Origin: a virus
Lineage: Duplodnaviria > Heunggongvirae > Uroviricota > Caudoviricetes
IMG/VR virus record: IMGVR_UViG_3300035501_000580
Direction: 5' to 3' (one strand)
DNA length: 64,000 nt
Positions 6,417 through 59,896 of this stretch are shown here, one piece after another; the first letter of the stretch is position 1; each line of letters begins with the position of its first letter. Position numbers and translations under genes: made by a program. The notes beneath the pieces were generated by a model. It made no database searches, had not been told where the DNA came from, and saw only the letters and a program-made list of their open reading frames with translations.

Positions 6417-6470
6417 TACACTACAAAGTTACAGGTTTTTCTCGACCTCTCCAAATAAAAACAGCTAATT
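6417..6470 (-). promoter_or_regulatory. conserved promoter unit
   Basis: gattacactacaaagttacaggttttt ... ctccaaataaa. Confidence 0.6.
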
Positions 6471-12786: not shown

Positions 12787-12861
12787 ATTTAATTTGTGAC
12801 TTCGGTGGGGATCGAACCCACGACCTTCCAGTGTTTAACCAGACGCTCTACCAGCTGAGAC
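12787..12861 (-). tRNA. tRNA, atypical (75 nt; anticodon arm TCTGG/TTAAACA/CTGGA, nominal anticodon AAA; irregular D-arm)
   Basis: reverse complement folds with 7-bp acceptor and T-arm GTGGG-TTCGATC-CCCAC; anticodon arm identical to tRNA at 13197..13268. Confidence 0.55.
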
Positions 12862-12961
12862 GTACGAAGTCAATCAATGCTATCTCACGACATGATGATT
12901 ATTTGTGTGTAAAAATTTAAATTCTATAAGAATAATTTAAAAAAATTAGTAAAAAACTCTG

Positions 12962-13034: not shown

Positions 13035-13196
13035 TAATCAATCATGTCTCACGACATGATGATTTTCTCTCTCTCACTTAATAAATAATTTATTTATAAA
13101 TCAAAAACTTATATACAATGAAAAAAAAATAATGTACTAAAAAAAAACACTTACTATGGTTATGTCTCACGACATAAAAGCATCAAATGAAAAAGT

Positions 13197-13268
13197 AACT
13201 CCGATGGGACTCGAACCCACGACCTTCCAGTGTTTAACCAGACGCTCTACCAACTGAGCTACGGAGTT
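13197..13268 (-). tRNA. tRNA, canonical 72-nt cloverleaf but anticodon loop TTAAACA (nominal anticodon AAA, C at position 37)
   Basis: perfect D- and T-arms; anticodon stem needs two G.U pairs; isotype uncertain (Phe-like?). Confidence 0.65.
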
Positions 13269-14134: not shown

Positions 14135-14425
14135 AGTTAAACTTTGTTTTTGTTTTACATTACAAAGATACTTGATTTTTTCGACCTGACCAAATTTTAA
14201 GTGTTAAAAATTTGTTAAATCTTTTTTCAATCATCTTGTGTAATGTTGTTTTTAATTACACTACAAAGATACTTGATTTTTTTGACTTGACCAAATTTTA
14301 AGAGCTAAAAATTTGTTAAATCTTTTTTCAATCATCTTTTCAATGTTCTTTTTGTTTTACACTACAAAGTTACAGGTTTTTTATAACATCTCCAAATTTT
14401 AAGTGCTAAAACTTTGTTAAAAATC
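14135..14425 (-). promoter_or_regulatory. three tandem copies of the ~70-bp conserved promoter unit (Bacteroidetes-type -33 TTTG / -7 TAnnTTTG)
   Basis: minus-sense reading gives AAATTTGG-N19-TAACTTTG/TATCTTTG then TAGTGTAA; three near-identical copies in series. Confidence 0.7.
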
Positions 14426-23110: not shown

Positions 23111-23593
23111 TTAAATATTTGATTCAAAAATTTTATTCAAGTCTTTTTTGAACGTACGATTATATTTCGTGTTCCAACTTTGATTCCAGTCACCATCACG
23201 ATATACCTTTCGTAGTTCTTTGGCGGTGGATTGTCTTTTTATTCTGGCTAATCCTCGACCAAACATAACAGTGTATTTTATTTCACCACCAATGACGACA
23301 TTTTTATTACCAACACGAACAGAGATACCAACATGATAGCAAAGACCATCATAAACGATTTCACTAAGTGTTGAGGTTTTGATTGATTTCAAACGAGGTG
23401 CCCAGACAATAATGTTATATGGGATACCCAGTTCTTCGAGATGACGAGCGATTTCAGATGCGGCGAACATACAACCACCATGAAAGAGTTCGTGTTTATC
23501 TTTCCAATAGTTGACCAAATCATCAACTTCTTTGATTATGTCTTTTCTTGTTCTCATATATTGTTTGTTTTGAATTACACTACAAAGATACAA
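23111..23593 (-). CDS. hypothetical protein (160 aa), paralog of 18219..18677
   Basis: shared motif; promoter unit at 23572-23640 upstream. Confidence 0.5.
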   Translation of the reverse strand: MYLCSVIQNKQYMRTRKDIIKEVDDLVNYWKDKHELFHGGCMFAASEIARHLEELGIPYNIIVWAPRLKSIKTSTLSEIVYDGLCYHVGISVRVGNKNVVIGGEIKYTVMFGRGLARIKRQSTAKELRKVYRDGDWNQSWNTKYNRTFKKDLNKIFESNI

Positions 23594-23640
23594 GAAAAAA
23601 TTGAAACCACCAAATATTTTACTAAAAAAAATAACAAAAA
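23572..23640 (-). promoter_or_regulatory. conserved promoter unit (variant)
   Basis: attacactacaaagatacaag ... ccaccaaatatttt. Confidence 0.5.
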
Positions 23641-26901: not shown

Positions 26902-27177
26902 TTAAACTTCTGCTTCTTCTTCAAGTGGTTGAATAGATTTGATTTCCACCACTGAACTTGGGTGGTAGCATCGCCAGTCACAACGGTCGATGTCCCAGTA
27001 AGAGTTGAAACCATATTCACCCGGACCATAACCACCTTGTGGGCGGTAGTTTTGTTCGGAGATGTATTCAGGGTCTGTGGTACCCTTAGCTTCTCGGAGT
27101 TCACCATTCTTTTTGACGTAGGTGAAAGTAACGATTGACGTTTGGAGAGCTTTACGGAGTTGTTGAAGGGTTGTCAT
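26902..27177 (-). CDS. hypothetical protein (91 aa)
   Basis: ORF directly downstream (minus sense) of promoter unit 27195-27290. Confidence 0.5.
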   Translation of the reverse strand: MTTLQQLRKALQTSIVTFTYVKKNGELREAKGTTDPEYISEQNYRPQGGYGPGEYGFNSYWDIDRCDWRCYHPSSVVEIKSIQPLEEEAEV

Positions 27178-27194: not shown

Positions 27195-27290
27195 AGTTAA
27201 ACTTTTGTTTTCTTTTTACACTACAAAGATACTTGATTTTTTTGACCTGACCAAATTTTAAGTGCTAAAAATTTGTTAAATCTTTTATCT
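27195..27290 (-). promoter_or_regulatory. conserved promoter unit
   Basis: tacactacaaagatacttgatttttttgacctgaccaaattttaagtgctaaaaatttgttaaatc. Confidence 0.65.
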
Positions 27291-27589: not shown

Positions 27590-27775
27590 AAACTTTTGTT
27601 TTCTTTTTACACTACAAAGATAATTGATTTTTTTGACCTGACCAAATTTTAAGTGCTAAAAATTTGTTAAATCTTTTATCTTTCATCTTGTGTAATGTTG
27701 TTTTTTAATTACAATACAAAGTTACAGGATTCATCTGGTTTCTCCAAATGAATCCTGTTAAAATATTAAAAACAT
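27590..27775 (-). promoter_or_regulatory. two tandem promoter units
   Basis: tacactacaaagataattga ... and ttacaatacaaagttacagg ... ctccaaatg. Confidence 0.6.
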
Positions 27776-27776
27776 T

Positions 27777-28280
27777 CTATTTAGTTTTGTTGTCGTGATT
27801 TGATAGAACTTTATAAACATTACTTTGAATACTTACCATCTCATCAAACAACTCAACCACACTATTATATTGTGTTTCTGTGATTTCTGTACATTTTACA
27901 TTAGGGTGAGGGTTAAAATTCTCACTATAAGGATTGTCGATATACTGTTCAGATACAAAACTTTCGGTTTGAATTGACATGAATATTCCATTCTCCATAT
28001 AAATGTCATCAGAAATTTCGTAGAATCGTTTCGTCCAAAAACCACCAACAGGTTCGTCATAATCTGTTATTTGAAAAACCGATTTGACTTTTTTGTTAAG
28101 GTCTTCCAATACGAAATAACGACCAACTAAGTTATTGTAGAATTGTAAACATTGTTTCTCTTTATCACTGAGATTAAATTGTTTCTCTTTACTGTGATGA
28201 TATACTAAATAATCTCGAAGAGTTGCGTCAGGGTGGTCTACTAAATAATCCGCCGCATCATTTAATTCTTGTGAACTCAT
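27777..28280 (-). CDS. member 1 of five-gene paralog family (167 aa)
   Basis: shared N-terminal ..DATL..Y.. and ..LVGRYFV.. and C-terminal ..QYN.V...F..(M/L)V motifs. Confidence 0.6.
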   Translation of the reverse strand: MSSQELNDAADYLVDHPDATLRDYLVYHHSKEKQFNLSDKEKQCLQFYNNLVGRYFVLEDLNKKVKSVFQITDYDEPVGGFWTKRFYEISDDIYMENGIFMSIQTESFVSEQYIDNPYSENFNPHPNVKCTEITETQYNSVVELFDEMVSIQSNVYKVLSNHDNKTK

Positions 28281-28298
28281 TGTTTATAATTTTAGTTG

Positions 28299-28877
28299 TC
28301 AAAAAGTATAGACAAGTTGGTTGAATGCATTAATCACCTCATTATATTGTTCTTTGGTGATTTCAATAACTTCCAAACCTTCATAATCTTCTTCTTTAAT
28401 TCTTGATTCTTTATGGAAGATTTGATAACGTAGTTTACCATAAGGACTATACTTGAATACATTTTCATTAACATAGTGGATATAGACATTTTCAATCTTA
28501 TAACTCTGGGTTTGGATTTCAGGAACATAGAAAACCATAGTCGTATTACTCTTGTGATCAATAAGTTTGTAATACTTATCTATGTATTCATCATCCTCTC
28601 TAATCCAAGGTCGTAGTTTATGTAACTTCTCGGTATCCTGTTCCAACATATATGAATCCGACCACTCAAGGAAACCGGAGTAATTACCTTCGGGATGTTC
28701 TTTTAGATAGAGTTCCATTAGTTCATTTTCACGAATTACCTCTGGAACATCATCATCATCATTTAATTCATCTCGATAAGGATTTGTGTAGTTTTCATAA
28801 TTTGGTTCTTCTGGTTCTCGTTTTTTTAGAGACTCATAGGCCAATTCTTCCATTGTAATATTCTCATTCATTTTCAA
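28299..28877 (-). CDS. member 2 of paralog family (192 aa)
   Basis: C-terminal ITKEQYNEVINAFNQLV matches family. Confidence 0.55.
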   Translation of the reverse strand: MKMNENITMEELAYESLKKREPEEPNYENYTNPYRDELNDDDDVPEVIRENELMELYLKEHPEGNYSGFLEWSDSYMLEQDTEKLHKLRPWIREDDEYIDKYYKLIDHKSNTTMVFYVPEIQTQSYKIENVYIHYVNENVFKYSPYGKLRYQIFHKESRIKEEDYEGLEVIEITKEQYNEVINAFNQLVYTF

Positions 28878-29364
28878 TATGTTTAGTTTCTATATGTTCA
28901 ATTTGATTGAATACATCCAAAAGACCATTGACTTCTTCTCTCATATGTGAATACTCAAATTCACTTATTTCAAAGACTTCAATTTTATTAACATCATAAT
29001 CTAAATCGACAGTTGAATATGGATTGTCAAAGATATATAGAGGGATTTCTTTGTCCCATTCAAACTTTAATGACTGTTGATAATCCCCATCAAGGTTTGT
29101 GTGATTGATGAATTTAAATATTGTGTGAGTTTTGGCGGTGTCATTTGAAACATGGTCAACCTTAAAGTAAAGAATTTCAGCGTCTCCATTAATCTTAATC
29201 ACAAAATATTTTCCTACCAATGTCTTAAACCACTGGGCATACTCACTATTGTTATCCAGTTCTTCAAAAAATTTAGTTTTAACATAGTATTGTTTAAATT
29301 CTTCAAGAGTTGCGTCTGGATGAATAAAAAGATATTGTTTTAGTTCCTTAAAATATTTTTCCAT
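28864..29364 (-). CDS. member 3 of paralog family (166 aa)
   Basis: HPDATLEEF ... LVGKYFVI ... EFEYSHMREEVNGLLDVFNQI. Confidence 0.6.
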   Translation of the reverse strand: MEKYFKELKQYLFIHPDATLEEFKQYYVKTKFFEELDNNSEYAQWFKTLVGKYFVIKINGDAEILYFKVDHVSNDTAKTHTIFKFINHTNLDGDYQQSLKFEWDKEIPLYIFDNPYSTVDLDYDVNKIEVFEISEFEYSHMREEVNGLLDVFNQIEHIETKHIENE

Positions 29365-29366
29365 AG

Positions 29367-29837
29367 TTATAACAGTGAAAGTTTATCAGATGATGCTTGT
29401 ATTTTTTGTATTTCATTCATAGCTTTTATATACTCATCAGATGAAATTTCTACATATCGGTGTGGATTAAGAGACATTTCTTCAATAAGGGCATATGGAT
29501 TATCAAACTTATCGAATGGAACGTTGTGATTATCCAGTCTTGTAACGGTCACACTTTGTTGTTCATCATAGTTGTCAAAATGAACTTCATACAATTTTTT
29601 AGTCAATCCTCGTTTTGTGTCAAGGTCAACTGCAGACAACAAGAAATAACACAAATACTTATTAGGGATAGTAAGTTTGAAACATTTACCTACTTGTTCC
29701 TCAAACCAAGCATTGTATTTTATTTTTCTCATGTTACGTTCCTTCTTTTCTTCCTGAAGGTAATCATAATATTCTTGTAGAGATGCCTTGGGATTATCTT
29801 GTAGGAAATCTCTAAGTTTTTGTAATCCAGAACCCAT
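29367..29837 (-). CDS. member 4 of paralog family (156 aa)
   Basis: NPKASLQEYYDYL ... QVGKCF ... SDEYIKAMNEIQKI. Confidence 0.55.
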   Translation of the reverse strand: MGSGLQKLRDFLQDNPKASLQEYYDYLQEEKKERNMRKIKYNAWFEEQVGKCFKLTIPNKYLCYFLLSAVDLDTKRGLTKKLYEVHFDNYDEQQSVTVTRLDNHNVPFDKFDNPYALIEEMSLNPHRYVEISSDEYIKAMNEIQKIQASSDKLSLL

Positions 29838-29839
29838 TG

Positions 29840-30202
29840 TTATAATTGTTTTACTAAAGTTATTGTATCATCACTATTTTCCATCAGAGGTTTATACCCA
29901 TTACGAATATACCATTCAAGTATGTCATTGGGGACAACCTTATTATAATCAAGATATACTTCTGTCATACCTGCTTCCTTAGCCAACTGTTCAGCCTTTT
30001 GTAGAAGTCTTGTAGCAATACCTTGTTTACGTTTATCTTCGTCTACATACAAACAATAGATATAAGACTTAACCGGATATATCAAAGAAATTGGTTCATC
30101 ATATATATCCAAGTGAACCGTACCACCTTCTTCAAAAATCAAATCTGTGGTTCGGTCTTTCCAAATTTGATGTTGTACTTTAATCATGTTGTTGTTCATC
30201 AA
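29840..30202 (-). CDS. GNAT-family N-acetyltransferase (120 aa)
   Basis: motif A RKQGIATRLLQKAEQLAKEAG (Q/R..G.A), size and position of acetyl-CoA binding segment. Confidence 0.65.
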   Translation of the reverse strand: MMNNNMIKVQHQIWKDRTTDLIFEEGGTVHLDIYDEPISLIYPVKSYIYCLYVDEDKRKQGIATRLLQKAEQLAKEAGMTEVYLDYNKVVPNDILEWYIRNGYKPLMENSDDTITLVKQL

Positions 30203-30716
30203 TTACGTCAATATCTTCATTTAAGAACTCCATTGTGTTTAGTTGAGAGGGTTGAAAATACTTCTTGACCAAACGAATATAATCATCTTTTGAGATTTCA
30301 TATATCACAGAGTCAGGGTCATTTTTTCTCTCGATATTACCCAACCAAGGATTATCAAACATCTCCAACCATTCCTCACAGTCATATTGGATATTTGTTT
30401 GTACTTCAGTGGGGTGTCCATACTTGTCATAGATAGCACAAGCTTGGTAACATTCTTGAGCGTAGGCTTCTTGTTTTTCCAAGTCAACATGGTCAACTTT
30501 GAATATTTCTCGATACAGGAAAGTAGGAGTTTTCATATCTTCCTTAACAAAATATCGACCTACCAAATTACCATACCAACAATTAGCATATGAAGTTTTA
30601 ATGTCTTGATCTTTTTCGATACGTTTGAGGTGTTTTAGATATTCTTCAAGGGTGGCTTCAGAATTAAACTCCATATATTTTTCTACATTAAATATTTCTT
30701 CACTTAATTTTGCCAT
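30180..30716 (-). CDS. member 5 of paralog family (178 aa)
   Basis: SEATLEEYLKHL ... LVGRYFVKED ... DDYIRLVKKYFQ. Confidence 0.6.
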   Translation of the reverse strand: MAKLSEEIFNVEKYMEFNSEATLEEYLKHLKRIEKDQDIKTSYANCWYGNLVGRYFVKEDMKTPTFLYREIFKVDHVDLEKQEAYAQECYQACAIYDKYGHPTEVQTNIQYDCEEWLEMFDNPWLGNIERKNDPDSVIYEISKDDYIRLVKKYFQPSQLNTMEFLNEDIDVIDEQQHD

Positions 30717-32437: not shown

Positions 32438-32854
32438 TTACTTTTTTACATGAACATCTGTAATGTAACTGGGTTTCTCCATTGATGTATAAGACATATC
32501 ATCTATCTTTATGACACGATATTGACTGTCAAAACTTACAAACATCGGACCAGAAACTTTGACACTTCCTTTATAAAACCAGACAAATTTGGGTTTTATT
32601 TGATAACTTACCTTAGCATCTGTTTCTTCTATTATTTCAATACAATCAGGTCTTCCATATGCTTCCAAGATTTGTATTGATGATAGAGGGTGTGTCTCAG
32701 GTTCTTGTTCCCATTTTTCGATATATCCTTTGGGATTGAGTGCCCCAAATAACATAGACTTACGAAATCTTTTCGTCTTGTAGTTAGAATACATCTCCGA
32801 TAGTAATAGAAATATAACAAAAACAAGACCTGTTATAATAAAAATAGTTGTCAT
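32438..32854 (-). CDS. membrane-anchored hypothetical protein (138 aa)
   Basis: N-terminal TM helix. Confidence 0.45.
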   Translation of the reverse strand: MTTIFIITGLVFVIFLLLSEMYSNYKTKRFRKSMLFGALNPKGYIEKWEQEPETHPLSSIQILEAYGRPDCIEIIEETDAKVSYQIKPKFVWFYKGSVKVSGPMFVSFDSQYRVIKIDDMSYTSMEKPSYITDVHVKK

Positions 32855-33369
32855 TTTTCTTCAAACATATTATGGAGTTTATAAAATTCTCTTTTCAACA
32901 TAGTCAACACCCTGATGTTAGGTGTTTTGGGAGGGTTACTGGATAGACATGATTCTTTTTCAGTGTATCCATATTCTTCACCATACATATCAAGTATGAA
33001 ACGACAGATGGCTTGTGATCTTGATTTACCAGCTCGACAGTGAATATAGAAATTACGACCTTTATTTCGTTCAATAAATTCTACACATTTCTTAGCTTGG
33101 TCTTCACTGATACCTAAGAACGTTGTCCCTTTGTATAGGAATTGGTCATCATTCACATCATCAAATTCCATATTCAACACATTATCTGTATCTTTTTGGA
33201 ACCAGTGATATGTTTCTTCATGGAGATAGTTGTTAAGACAATCCGGTGTTCCAATGATAGAGATGAACGCCTTGTCTGTTTCTCTCTCCACATTTTCATC
33301 GCTGATATTCATTCGCCACATCTTAATGTCGAAGTCAGCTTGTGAAAAAACACTTATTCGATTTACCAT
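32851..33369 (-). CDS. dual-specificity/tyrosine protein phosphatase (CX5R), 172 aa
   Basis: HCRAGKSRS signature (HC.5R(S/T)) in translation. Confidence 0.7.
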   Translation of the reverse strand: MVNRISVFSQADFDIKMWRMNISDENVERETDKAFISIIGTPDCLNNYLHEETYHWFQKDTDNVLNMEFDDVNDDQFLYKGTTFLGISEDQAKKCVEFIERNKGRNFYIHCRAGKSRSQAICRFILDMYGEEYGYTEKESCLSSNPPKTPNIRVLTMLKREFYKLHNMFEEK

Positions 33370-34939: not shown

Positions 34940-35010
34940 TTTTTAATTACACTACAAAGTTACAGGTTTTTTCTAACATCTCCAAATTTTAAGTGCTAAA
35001 AATTTGTTAA
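34940..35010 (-). promoter_or_regulatory. conserved promoter unit
   Basis: -7 box TAACTTTG (rc of 34956-34963), -33 TTTG (rc of 34983-34986), 19-nt spacer. Confidence 0.7.
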
Positions 35011-40534: not shown

Positions 40535-40610
40535 AATTACACTACAAAGATACAGGTTTTTTTTCAGTCCTCCAAATTTTAAGTGCTAAAAATTTGTTAA
40601 AGTTTTTGGT
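40535..40610 (-). promoter_or_regulatory. conserved promoter unit
   Basis: attacactacaaagatacaggtttttttt ... ctccaaattttaagtgctaaaaatttgttaaag. Confidence 0.65.
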
Positions 40611-56253: not shown

Positions 56254-56524
56254 CCAAGGAATTGAACCTTTGTGGTTGAAAAATGTCTAACCACCTACGA
56301 CCTCCGGAGAGTCATCCCTATTACCAAACAGGGCAAGAACAGACAAGTGACCATTGTTTTGGTACAATGGAGAAAACCCGTACAAGGCTACCAATTAGGC
56401 GGCGGCGTACATGACCTTTTCGGGTCGTGAAAAATTGTTGCCAGTTAAATAGGCCATAGACTTCTCCTTCATTCCTACTCATATGTCATCAATACCAGTC
56501 ATCCCCTTATATTTATTTTACTTT

Positions 56525-56560
56525 GTGGAGATGGTGGGGATCGAACCCACGTCTAACATA
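56525..56560 (-). pseudogene. tRNA 3'-half fragment (variable loop + T-arm GTGGG-TTCGATC-CCCAC + acceptor CATCTCC-A)
   Basis: no matching 5' half (GGAGATG) nearby. Confidence 0.4.
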
Positions 56561-56589
56561 CTTTCTTAATATTATCAACAAAATCTATA

Positions 56590-56663
56590 GTGGTCCGGAT
56601 AGGGCTTGAACCTATGACCTTCTGATTATGAGTCAGCTGCTCTAACCAACTGAGCTACGGGAC
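56590..56663 (-). tRNA. tRNA-Met(CAT), second copy (distinct sequence; elongator/initiator/Ile2 not resolvable)
   Basis: anticodon loop CTCATAA, T-arm ATAGG-TTCAAGC-CCTAT. Confidence 0.8.
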
Positions 56664-56858
56664 CGAAATACAAAGTTCAATAAATGGATATGAGTTATAA
56701 TGAGTTGCAATAAATTGCGGTATGAACTTTTATGTATTTTAATGAAAATTAATAGACGAATTTATCAAGATACTATCACTCTATGGCAGAGGATTATTGC
56801 GGTCTGTATCTTTATTTAAGTTTCAACAAATTAAATATAACAAAATGATTTCAATTTT

Positions 56859-58994: not shown

Positions 58995-59065
58995 TTTAAT
59001 TACACTACAAAGTTACAGGTTTTTCTCGACATAACCAAATTTTAAATGTTAATTATTTGTTAATT
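58995..59065 (-). promoter_or_regulatory. conserved promoter unit
   Basis: attacactacaaagttacaggtttttctcgacataaccaaattttaaatg. Confidence 0.65.
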
Positions 59066-59896
59066 TTTTGATGATGATAGTATTTGTTTCTCTATCAGTT
59101 TATATGACCTAAAAAACATATATGGGAGGATATTCAAATCAGAAAAACCATATGTTCCGCACGAAAAAAAATCGTGAACTTCAATAGGAACAGTGGATTC
59201 GTCTTTCAATACCGCAACATCCAAAGTATATTCTCTGAGATAGGGGATATAGGCTGACAATACATCTATCATTTCTTTGATTATATTGACATCAGGGAAT
59301 ACAGTAAAATCACCTGAGTAGTTTTGAAGTCCACTTAGTTTTTGATTATGGATAAAACAACGATACTCAGATACTATTTCTTTATCACCTATCAGTAACT
59401 CGCTAATTTGGACAGTATATTTATTATCGAAGTAATCTCTAATCTCATAGTCATAGTTTTTACCATTTGATTCGTCTTTAATGAAATGGTTAGACTTCGC
59501 GAATAGAGGTTTTTTATTATATACTGAACTGGGATAGACATTTTTAACCACTCTCTTAGCATAGTTAAACAAACATTCTGGGAGGTTTCTTGGTTGAATA
59601 TTTACATCTACATCGAGTTTAACATATTCAGACATATATTTTTTAAGGAATAATGTGACAAACTCGACGGAACCAATAGGGATAACTCGTTCGATATCAC
59701 ATTTACAAGTTAGTATATCCAATTCATTCAGTTCATCAAATGTACAGAAAGTTGTTCCCATTGAATCTGGAACACACCAATTTTGATATTTCACAGCATT
59801 GACAAGTTCCAGTTCAAAGTCATATATCACCTGATTAGTTTCCGGAGATACTTGACATAAAAACAATATAAAATCACTCTTTTTCTCCATGATCAA
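59060..59896 (-). CDS. hypothetical protein (278 aa), possibly ATP-grasp-like
   Basis: weak; segment ISELLIGDKEIVSEYRCFIH reminiscent of ATP-grasp central strand. Confidence 0.35.
   Translation of the reverse strand: MIMEKKSDFILFLCQVSPETNQVIYDFELELVNAVKYQNWCVPDSMGTTFCTFDELNELDILTCKCDIERVIPIGSVEFVTLFLKKYMSEYVKLDVDVNIQPRNLPECLFNYAKRVVKNVYPSSVYNKKPLFAKSNHFIKDESNGKNYDYEIRDYFDNKYTVQISELLIGDKEIVSEYRCFIHNQKLSGLQNYSGDFTVFPDVNIIKEMIDVLSAYIPYLREYTLDVAVLKDESTVPIEVHDFFSCGTYGFSDLNILPYMFFRSYKLIEKQILSSSKN

Follow-up and report, generated by a model that had tools for sequence, protein, structure and literature searches.

Why would a phage keep five strongly diverged versions of one small protein side by side, with an acetyltransferase gene set among them? 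The question is raised by positions 27777-30716 of a 64,000-nucleotide stretch of DNA (hereafter the window) from IMG/VR virus record IMGVR_UViG_3300035501_000580, assigned to the Caudoviricetes. The source is an uncultivated phage with a genome of about 350 kb, and the array lies within a long minus-strand operon of accessory genes. The explanation we favour, a tentative preference held a little short of even confidence, is that the five paralogs would be old, sub-functionalised, non-enzymatic Sm-like binding proteins, co-expressed in this accessory operon with a GNAT acetyltransferase that was acquired independently. Our confidence in the anatomy of the array is much higher than our confidence in this mechanism.

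A sequence-only reading of this DNA had described five diverged paralogous genes in tandem with a GNAT gene embedded among them, and alignment and Pfam matches bear out this arrangement, with the GNAT gene lying between the fifth and fourth paralogs (E and D below). According to the list of open reading frames (ORFs) of the window, the region consists of six tightly packed ORFs, all present where that reading placed them and all on the minus strand, a point it left unmentioned. The paralogs are lettered A to E from the lowest coordinate, and transcription therefore meets E first. Paralog E (30180-30716; 178 amino acids (aa), isoelectric point (pI) 4.55, net charge -18) matches the family profile at E 7.3e-23, and its stop codon overlaps the start of the GNAT gene. 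The latter extends over 29840-30199 and encodes a mini-GNAT of 119 aa from an ATG at 30199; alternative starts at 30202 (TTG) and 30187 (ATG) would give products of 115-120 aa, and the overlap with E amounts to 8-23 nucleotides (nt) depending on which of the three codons is used. Paralog D follows at 29367-29837 (156 aa, pI 5.67, net charge -3, profile E 1.7e-30), and then C at 28864-29364 (166 aa, pI 4.75), the protein chosen for AlphaFold2 modelling. Paralog B occupies 28299-28871, with 190 aa from an ATG at 28871 or 192 aa from an alternative TTG at 28877, and A (27777-28280; 167 aa, pI 4.66, profile E 1.2e-35) closes the array. Only 2 nt separate the GNAT stop from D and D from C, B overlaps the stop of C by 8 nt, and 18 nt lie between B and A, a spacing typical of translational coupling. 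No structured RNA was detected within the array at Rfam gathering thresholds, and profile searches of the window ORFs found no sixth copy.

Four of the paralogs are related beyond doubt of composition. Pairwise Smith-Waterman local scores among A, C, D and E range from 108 to 120, compared with 33-38 +/- 6-7 for shuffled sequences (z = 10.2-15.5), and the observed score was reached by none of 200 shuffles. The similarity is therefore not compositional, and the family withstands the shuffled-control check that the sequence-only reading had proposed. Paralog B stands apart, with pairwise z values of 4.5 to A, 2.9 to C, 1.6 to D and -0.9 to E. Against a profile built from the other four sequences it is borderline (E 0.044), although it is the best non-member among 563 ORFs; once outside homologues are included in the family profiles, hmmsearch recovers it at E 3.4e-7 among 1022 ORFs, and hhalign aligns it to the family profile with a probability of 96.4% and E 1.3e-9 over 119 columns. 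B is thus best described as a degenerate member, recognised through profile comparisons only. The shared motifs quoted earlier for all five proteins are present in A, C, D and E, while B carries only degenerate versions of them: HPEGNY for HPDATL, IDKYY for VGKYF and YSPY for DNPY. It also bears an acidic N-terminal extension of about 50 aa. At the DNA level, the repeats between copies are limited to motif-sized remnants of 18-33 nt.

The AlphaFold2 model of C, built on a 72-sequence alignment, is confident, with a predicted local distance difference test score (pLDDT) of 93.8 and a predicted template-modelling score of 0.75. It places helices at residues 2-14, 20-47 and 135-165 and strands at 53-58, 63-72, 76-89, 95-103, 106-108 and 128-133. 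The HPDATL turn caps an N-terminal helical hairpin, in the core a single helix leads into strongly bent antiparallel strands, and a WFxNPY loop precedes the final strand and the long C-terminal helix. Sm/LSm chains are the best fold matches of this model in two independent programs, one of them Foldseek run on the PDB, where probabilities are 0.96-1.0 and E-values 0.014 or worse. Since the two programs agree, the core is probably an Sm-like (SH3-type) barrel with family-specific helical additions. Uncharacterised phage proteins, a number of them from jumbo phages, head the BFVD matches, and the hit at rank 26 is named Sm-like. For B, the AlphaFold2 model reaches a pLDDT of 73.9; it retains the two N-terminal helices, the first beta-hairpin (b1, b2), the last strand (b6) and the C-terminal helix, but has no confident structure at the place of strands 3-5 of the other paralogs, residues 123-154 falling below pLDDT 50.

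The predicted likeness to Sm, LSm and Hfq proteins lies in the N-terminal helix and five strongly bent antiparallel strands of the model. It does not extend to sequence, where identity is 1-16% and no relationship is apparent; Pfam LSM/Hfq models match neither the five window proteins (E <= 1) nor 72 family members (E <= 0.01). Features that set the family apart from these proteins are an additional N-terminal helix capped by HPDATL, the WFxNPY loop, a sixth strand and, at the C-terminus, a helix some 30 residues long, besides its strong acidity. Its most conserved positions, in the numbering of C, are P16, G51, 111, P115, E132, N114, Y116, F54 and 108; position 111 is W in 67 of 72 members and position 108 is N in 56 of 72. 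Four of the five window paralogs have a pI of 4.5-4.8 and a net charge of -13 to -22, D being the exception at -3, and four of the five come within the first 12 when 90 window proteins are ordered by acidity. Across the family, pI has a median of 5.6 and exceeds 7 in only 6 of 68 members. No catalytic motif or enzyme family is detectable in the paralogs. Acidity and the lack of a catalytic signature together make a role as binder or adaptor likelier than nucleic-acid binding of a general kind, while specific RNA recognition would still be compatible with them. Another predicted Sm-like SH3 barrel, a WYL_2 protein (PF10902), is encoded at 26902-27177 on the minus strand, three genes downstream of the array; a relation between the two was rejected, with an hhalign probability of 0.2%.

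Beyond the window, the paralogs belong to a family of about 120 clusters that is apparently previously undescribed and restricted to phages. A HMMER search of 1.84 billion protein representatives returned 121 at E <= 1e-3, of which 57 also pass E <= 1e-10; almost without exception these are single-domain proteins of 140-170 aa matched end to end. A word-index search found only orthologs and two distant homologues, and a query with the 72-sequence alignment yielded four proteins. The five window proteins have no significant match in Pfam, PHROGs, NCBIfam or PADLOC. The 72 members likewise lack a significant Pfam match (six families appear, with one member each, at E 0.001-0.01), and the only PHROG matched is phrog_420, whose function is not assigned, by one of the 72. 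Two protein queries and a degenerate DNA pattern for HPDATLxE[YF] recovered no family member from IMG/VR. In GTDB genomes, no full-length member occurs among the matches listed, which comprise only IS630-type HTH ORFs selected by the motif. A tblastn search of INPHARED with a distant member gave a single unannotated 5.7 kb gut phage fragment.

Two possible misidentifications arose from these searches. The ortholog of A (P0003) carries the JGI name 'CRISPR/Cas system-associated endoribonuclease Cas2'; because A has no Pfam Cas2 match at E <= 1 and the family model is a helix plus a barrel rather than ferredoxin-like, this label looks spurious. A few long proteins matched repeatedly, though only over the initial 25 or so residues of the family, and these are HTH_Tnp_IS630 (PF01710) repeat proteins. 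The family start, L-x-x-Y-L-x-x-H-P-D-A-T-L-x-E-Y, does resemble the repeat starts in P0077, P0090 and P0117. However, the resemblance takes in helix 1 and the turn and ends early in helix 2, which in the family model runs for 28 residues with no separate third (recognition) helix seen, and membership was rejected, as none of the 72 members matches PF01710 at E <= 0.01.

Nine distant loci contain one clear family copy each, and all-against-all BLASTP of the neighbours revealed no conserved partner gene upstream or downstream. No adjacent GNAT was found at these loci by neighbour BLAST including the GNAT, with Pfam covering part of the neighbours. In the L027 locus, a second diverged copy with a DNPY motif (1321-1791) was considered and not accepted (hhalign probability 4%). 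Locus L010 comes from a fairly close relative, whose Band_7 protein is 80% identical to that of the window, and there the family copy lies upstream of Band_7, at the position of a strain-variable cassette.

Among close relatives the array is stable. Contigs from JGI and Logan that reach about 352 kb (one of 351.6 kb) carry the same proteins, and the gene order E-GNAT-D-C-B-A is identical in all eight related contigs. The copy-number variation that the sequence-only reading had proposed to look for is consequently absent from these eight, each of which has the same five-plus-GNAT arrangement. In INPHARED, blastn with the 4.5 kb array region gave no match. Ratios of nonsynonymous to synonymous substitution rates (dN/dS) were computed between the window and one strain at 91-97% nucleotide identity, A being left out owing to an indel; they are lowest in E and the GNAT, at 0.05 each, and reach 0.11 in C, 0.23 in D and 0.30 in B, while the neighbouring Band_7 gene gives 0.06 and an upstream gene of 94 aa 0.10. 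Values of this order show that E, the GNAT, D, C and B are real genes under purifying selection. They also run against the earlier description of the family as fast-evolving, the range of 0.05-0.30 between strains being comparable to that of Band_7. The paralogs are evidently the product of ancient divergence and are not diverging rapidly now.

A recent expansion within this lineage does not account for the five copies. The best BLASTP hits of the window paralogs fall outside the array, neighbour-joining bootstrap support for any clade made up of window paralogs only is at most 14%, and distances of 1.5-2 substitutions per site are saturated; a monophyletic recent expansion was rejected on the first two grounds. 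Outside homologues are at least as close to the window paralogs as these are to one another; the array is therefore either ancient or assembled from separate acquisitions, and each of its copies is individually maintained. A broad parallel exists in Bacillus phage G, a jumbo phage in which a lineage-specific expansion produced about 35 zinc-ribbon copies (PMC7824862). Both cases involve a huge phage that keeps several copies of a small non-enzymatic domain, but the present array has five copies, saturated divergence and no monophyly, and lacks any sign of a recent burst.

The embedded gene is a GNAT, as the sequence-only reading had proposed. Pfam matches exceed their cutoffs for Acetyltransf_1 (PF00583; 39.9 bits against 20.7), Acetyltransf_7 (PF13508; 39.0 against 27) and Acetyltransf_10 (29.0 against 23.6), and the PHROG match is to an acetyltransferase, phrog_1249 (E 1.8e-10). 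The motif quoted earlier, RKQGIATRLLQKAE, holds the acetyl-CoA motif R-x-x-G-x-A. In the translation, motif A (Q/R-x-x-G-x-G/A) reads R57-K-Q-G-I-A62 and aligns to motif A of 1vkc, the best PDB match (E 2.7e-5, over residues 41-104 only). Towards its C-terminus the protein has a W-Y-x-x-x-G-Y element. The protein is short, at 115-120 aa compared with 140-166 aa for its single-domain PDB relatives. Only residues 27-105, a stretch that takes in the surroundings of motif A and the C-terminal part, match the Pfam profiles, and in their second half, while the segment before motif A (57-62) is short. In NCBIfam the top matches fall far short of their cutoffs and are to unspecific models of the aminoglycoside or RimI type, and the word-index search returned only the GNAT itself, with no relative outside its own phage lineage. 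Jumbo phages commonly carry GNATs as accessory genes, with host proteins as the predicted targets (PMC7824862). Like the phiKMV Rac-like enzymes, which are GNATs of this kind (PMC7824862), the present protein is a single-domain accessory gene product of a huge phage; it differs in its short length and in the lack of word-index matches beyond its own lineage.

Taken together, this evidence suggests how the array may work. Each paralog would serve as a non-enzymatic binding module for a host or phage macromolecule during infection, with a ligand site formed by the barrel and the conserved aromatic/Asn loop, and with the long helices offering a scaffold or an oligomerisation surface. The five copies may have been retained through different targets or as distinct subunits. 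The GNAT would most simply be an accessory enzyme in its own right, acetylating either a small molecule or a protein of host or phage origin; it would have been gained only in this lineage and would be co-expressed with the array. Several considerations weigh against this explanation. The mechanism is proposed from a predicted fold, charge and conservation only, and SH3-like barrels are so common that the fold says little about the ligand. The acidity of the paralogs is only moderately unusual in this genome, where the median pI of window proteins is 5.7 and 28% of them fall below pI 5. Finally, the tight overlap of 8-23 nt between the GNAT and E, together with their equally strong conservation, could point to a functional link between the two, whereas the favoured explanation regards the overlap as incidental.

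The window contains 15 matches to a 32-nt motif, TTTG-N20-TAnnTTTG, where 4.8 +/- 2.4 are expected, and 12 of these are on the minus strand. In its fuller form the motif is TTTGG..(N)..AAAAAA.C..GTA(A/T)CTTTG; its copies read as intergenic, and we take it to be a promoter of the Bacteroidota type (-33 TTTG / -7 TAnnTTTG). The minus-strand copies lie at 1737-1768, 6424-6455, 14163-14194, 14264-14295, 14365-14396, 23583-23614, 27224-27255, 27615-27646, 27717-27748, 34955-34986, 40545-40576 and 59008-59039, and the three within 14163-14396 are spaced exactly 101 bp apart. These features suggest that the host belongs to the Bacteroidota and that the promoter cassette is repeated. The nearest upstream copy, at 34955-34986, is the likely start of the transcription unit of the array, with no further copy on the minus strand between 34955 and 27748, which probably makes the array the last part of a transcript some 7 kb long. 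A terminator-like stem-loop (27724-27758, minus strand; 15 pairs, 6 of them G-C) follows 19 nt after the stop of A; it overlaps the promoter-like motif at 27717-27748, and two motif copies lie just beyond A.

The same unit of about 7 kb encodes the Band_7 protein and, by our reading of the translations, two further products, one bearing a CX5R phosphatase signature and the other nucleotidyltransferase-like. Directly upstream of Band_7 lies the strain-variable cassette (32438-33369 on the minus strand of the window; 6520-7403 in L004). In the window and in L002 and L008 it comprises a 172-aa ORF with the CX5R signature (HCRAGKSRS) and a membrane-like ORF of 138-144 aa, while L004-L007 carry unrelated ORFs of 156 and 105 aa at the same place. 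A profile search excluded the 156-aa ORF from the paralog family.

Elsewhere in the window, the gene content is that of a tRNA-rich huge phage, in line with the sequence-only reading: 22-23 tRNA genes, a permuted tmRNA, and ORFs matching the Pfam families Thg1, RlaP and PolyA_pol_RNAbd (CCA-adding type). YqeY, Sir2, two R2K ATP-grasp proteins, an Acb3-like inhibitor of the cyclic-oligonucleotide-based anti-phage signalling system (CBASS), IMPDH/GMP reductase, thymidine kinase, NAD-dependent DNA ligase and several HNH endonucleases are also among the Pfam matches. The permuted tmRNA lies at 56395-56585 on the minus strand (Rfam RF04321, 60.7 bits against a gathering score of 47) and adjoins a tRNA-Met at 56591-56664; ARAGORN reports a tmRNA* at 56304-56615 with the tag peptide GNNFSRPEKVMYAAA. 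The phage thus appears to encode a tmRNA of the two-piece type. An extra tRNA at 12797-12871 on the minus strand scores 39.8 bits in Rfam and is not called by ARAGORN, which for its part lists at 13195-13268 a tRNA-Phe whose anticodon, AAA, is unusual.

This content lends interest to a competing explanation, to which we assign a low though appreciable probability: the paralogs may act as RNA-binding chaperones of the Hfq/LSm type, possibly as a mixed ring, within a tRNA-centred programme, with the phage tRNAs, the tmRNA or damaged host tRNA as candidate ligands. It draws on the same top fold matches to Sm/LSm chains, on the tRNA, tmRNA, Thg1, RlaP and CCA-adding-type genes of the window, and on residues W111, N114 and Y116 of C, which are of the kinds that stack on or read bases. 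Neighbourhoods elsewhere add to it. In L027 (2010-9638) and L028 (5740-6294), a single family member lies within 1-5 kb of an RNA ligase (PF09414), the 2'-phosphotransferase Tpt1/KptA and Thg1, and in L013 a member is near an AAA_33/KTI12-type kinase. This neighbourhood link is weak, however, as L027 and L028 represent one lineage and five other loci are without RNA genes; in the window itself, the array is about 29 kb from a 276-aa ORF (59060-59890) that we take as the candidate Thg1. A net charge of -13 to -22 disfavours RNA binding in general, no Sm or Hfq family came up when the five window proteins and the 72 members were scanned against Pfam, and the W-F-x-N-P-Y loop follows strand 5, outside the Sm1 and Sm2 loops.

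Anti-defence or host takeover, the interpretation of the sequence-only reading, offers another explanation, also unlikely on balance and yet deserving attention. The acidic paralogs would then each disable a host protein of their own, whether of defence or of housekeeping, perhaps by acting as mimics of nucleic acid or as sponges. Small, strongly acidic and non-enzymatic proteins would suit such a role, and so would their placement in an accessory operon beside a strain-variable cassette. The L010 relative, with its family member in the variable position, the Acb3-like CBASS inhibitor encoded in the window and the absence of the family from the matches listed in the scans of bacterial genomes all point the same way. 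Against this stand the dN/dS values between strains, which give no indication of rapid or diversifying evolution, the constant copy number in the eight related contigs and the lack of any known anti-defence protein among the fold matches listed. This explanation also overlaps with the binding-module explanation that we favour, of which it is a special case.

Considerably less probable is a complex between the GNAT and the paralogs, in which the latter would assist the co-translated mini-GNAT as auxiliary or specificity subunits, or would serve as its substrates. The model for such an arrangement is NatC, an N-terminal acetyltransferase of which Naa38 is an Sm-like subunit. The start of the GNAT gene overlaps the stop of E, the two proteins are equally conserved (dN/dS 0.05), and the Pfam and PDB matches span only the C-terminal two thirds of the GNAT, so that a partner may complete the acceptor site. 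The GNAT weakly matches Naa30 (E 0.04 and 0.52), and the C model matches Sm-like Naa38 of the same NatC PDB entries; both matches are generic, and we regard the coincidence, weakly, as a lead only. Naa38 is one of dozens of Sm-fold matches, and Naa30 is one of 37 GNAT matches and not significant. Moreover, gene overlap is usual throughout the operon, and no GNAT stands beside a family member in the nine distant loci, to the extent of the neighbour searches given above.

Less probable again is the idea that the five paralogs form a hetero-oligomeric ring or scaffold that would bind the tRNA/tmRNA pool, or would recruit the mini-GNAT as Naa38 serves NatC. Such an assembly would be the viral equivalent of the eukaryotic Sm/LSm heteromers, for which no bacterial or phage precedent is known to us.

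The proposal of the sequence-only reading that the GNAT might be a tRNA-acetylating toxin fares worst. GNAT toxins of this type (TacT, AtaT, KacT and ItaT) share with the present protein the fold, the small size and an overlapping upstream gene, as antitoxin genes often overlap their toxins, and the phage is rich in tRNA genes. These toxins form a two-gene module, however, whereas the window GNAT belongs to a long phage operon. None of the four occurs among the 37 PDB sequences matched by phmmer at E <= 10, its neighbours E and D have no Pfam match at E <= 1 to a DUF1778 or ribbon-helix-helix (RHH) antitoxin, and PADLOC gave no match. The NCBIfam matches are generic and below cutoff, and tRNA-acetylating GNAT toxins have about 160-175 aa compared with 115-120 aa here. 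A TacT/AtaT-type toxin module with a neighbouring paralog as its antitoxin is accordingly very improbable, the idea being unsupported for want of a toxin-clade match, a DUF1778/RHH neighbour or a PADLOC match.

What is new here is the family, which is undescribed, whereas its fold and this kind of arrangement are already known. The analysis defines an unannotated family of about 120 clusters with a confident structural model, although its practical value is modest; it also corrects the 'Cas2' label on the ortholog of A and removes the speculation about a tRNA toxin. The biological meaning will depend on which function applies. If the paralogs bind RNA or assemble into mixed rings, Sm-type biology would be extended to phages and tied to a large set of tRNA, tmRNA and tRNA-repair genes. 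If they are instead inhibitors of host proteins, the array would supply five distinct binders built on one scaffold, useful for revealing host targets in what are probably Bacteroidota.

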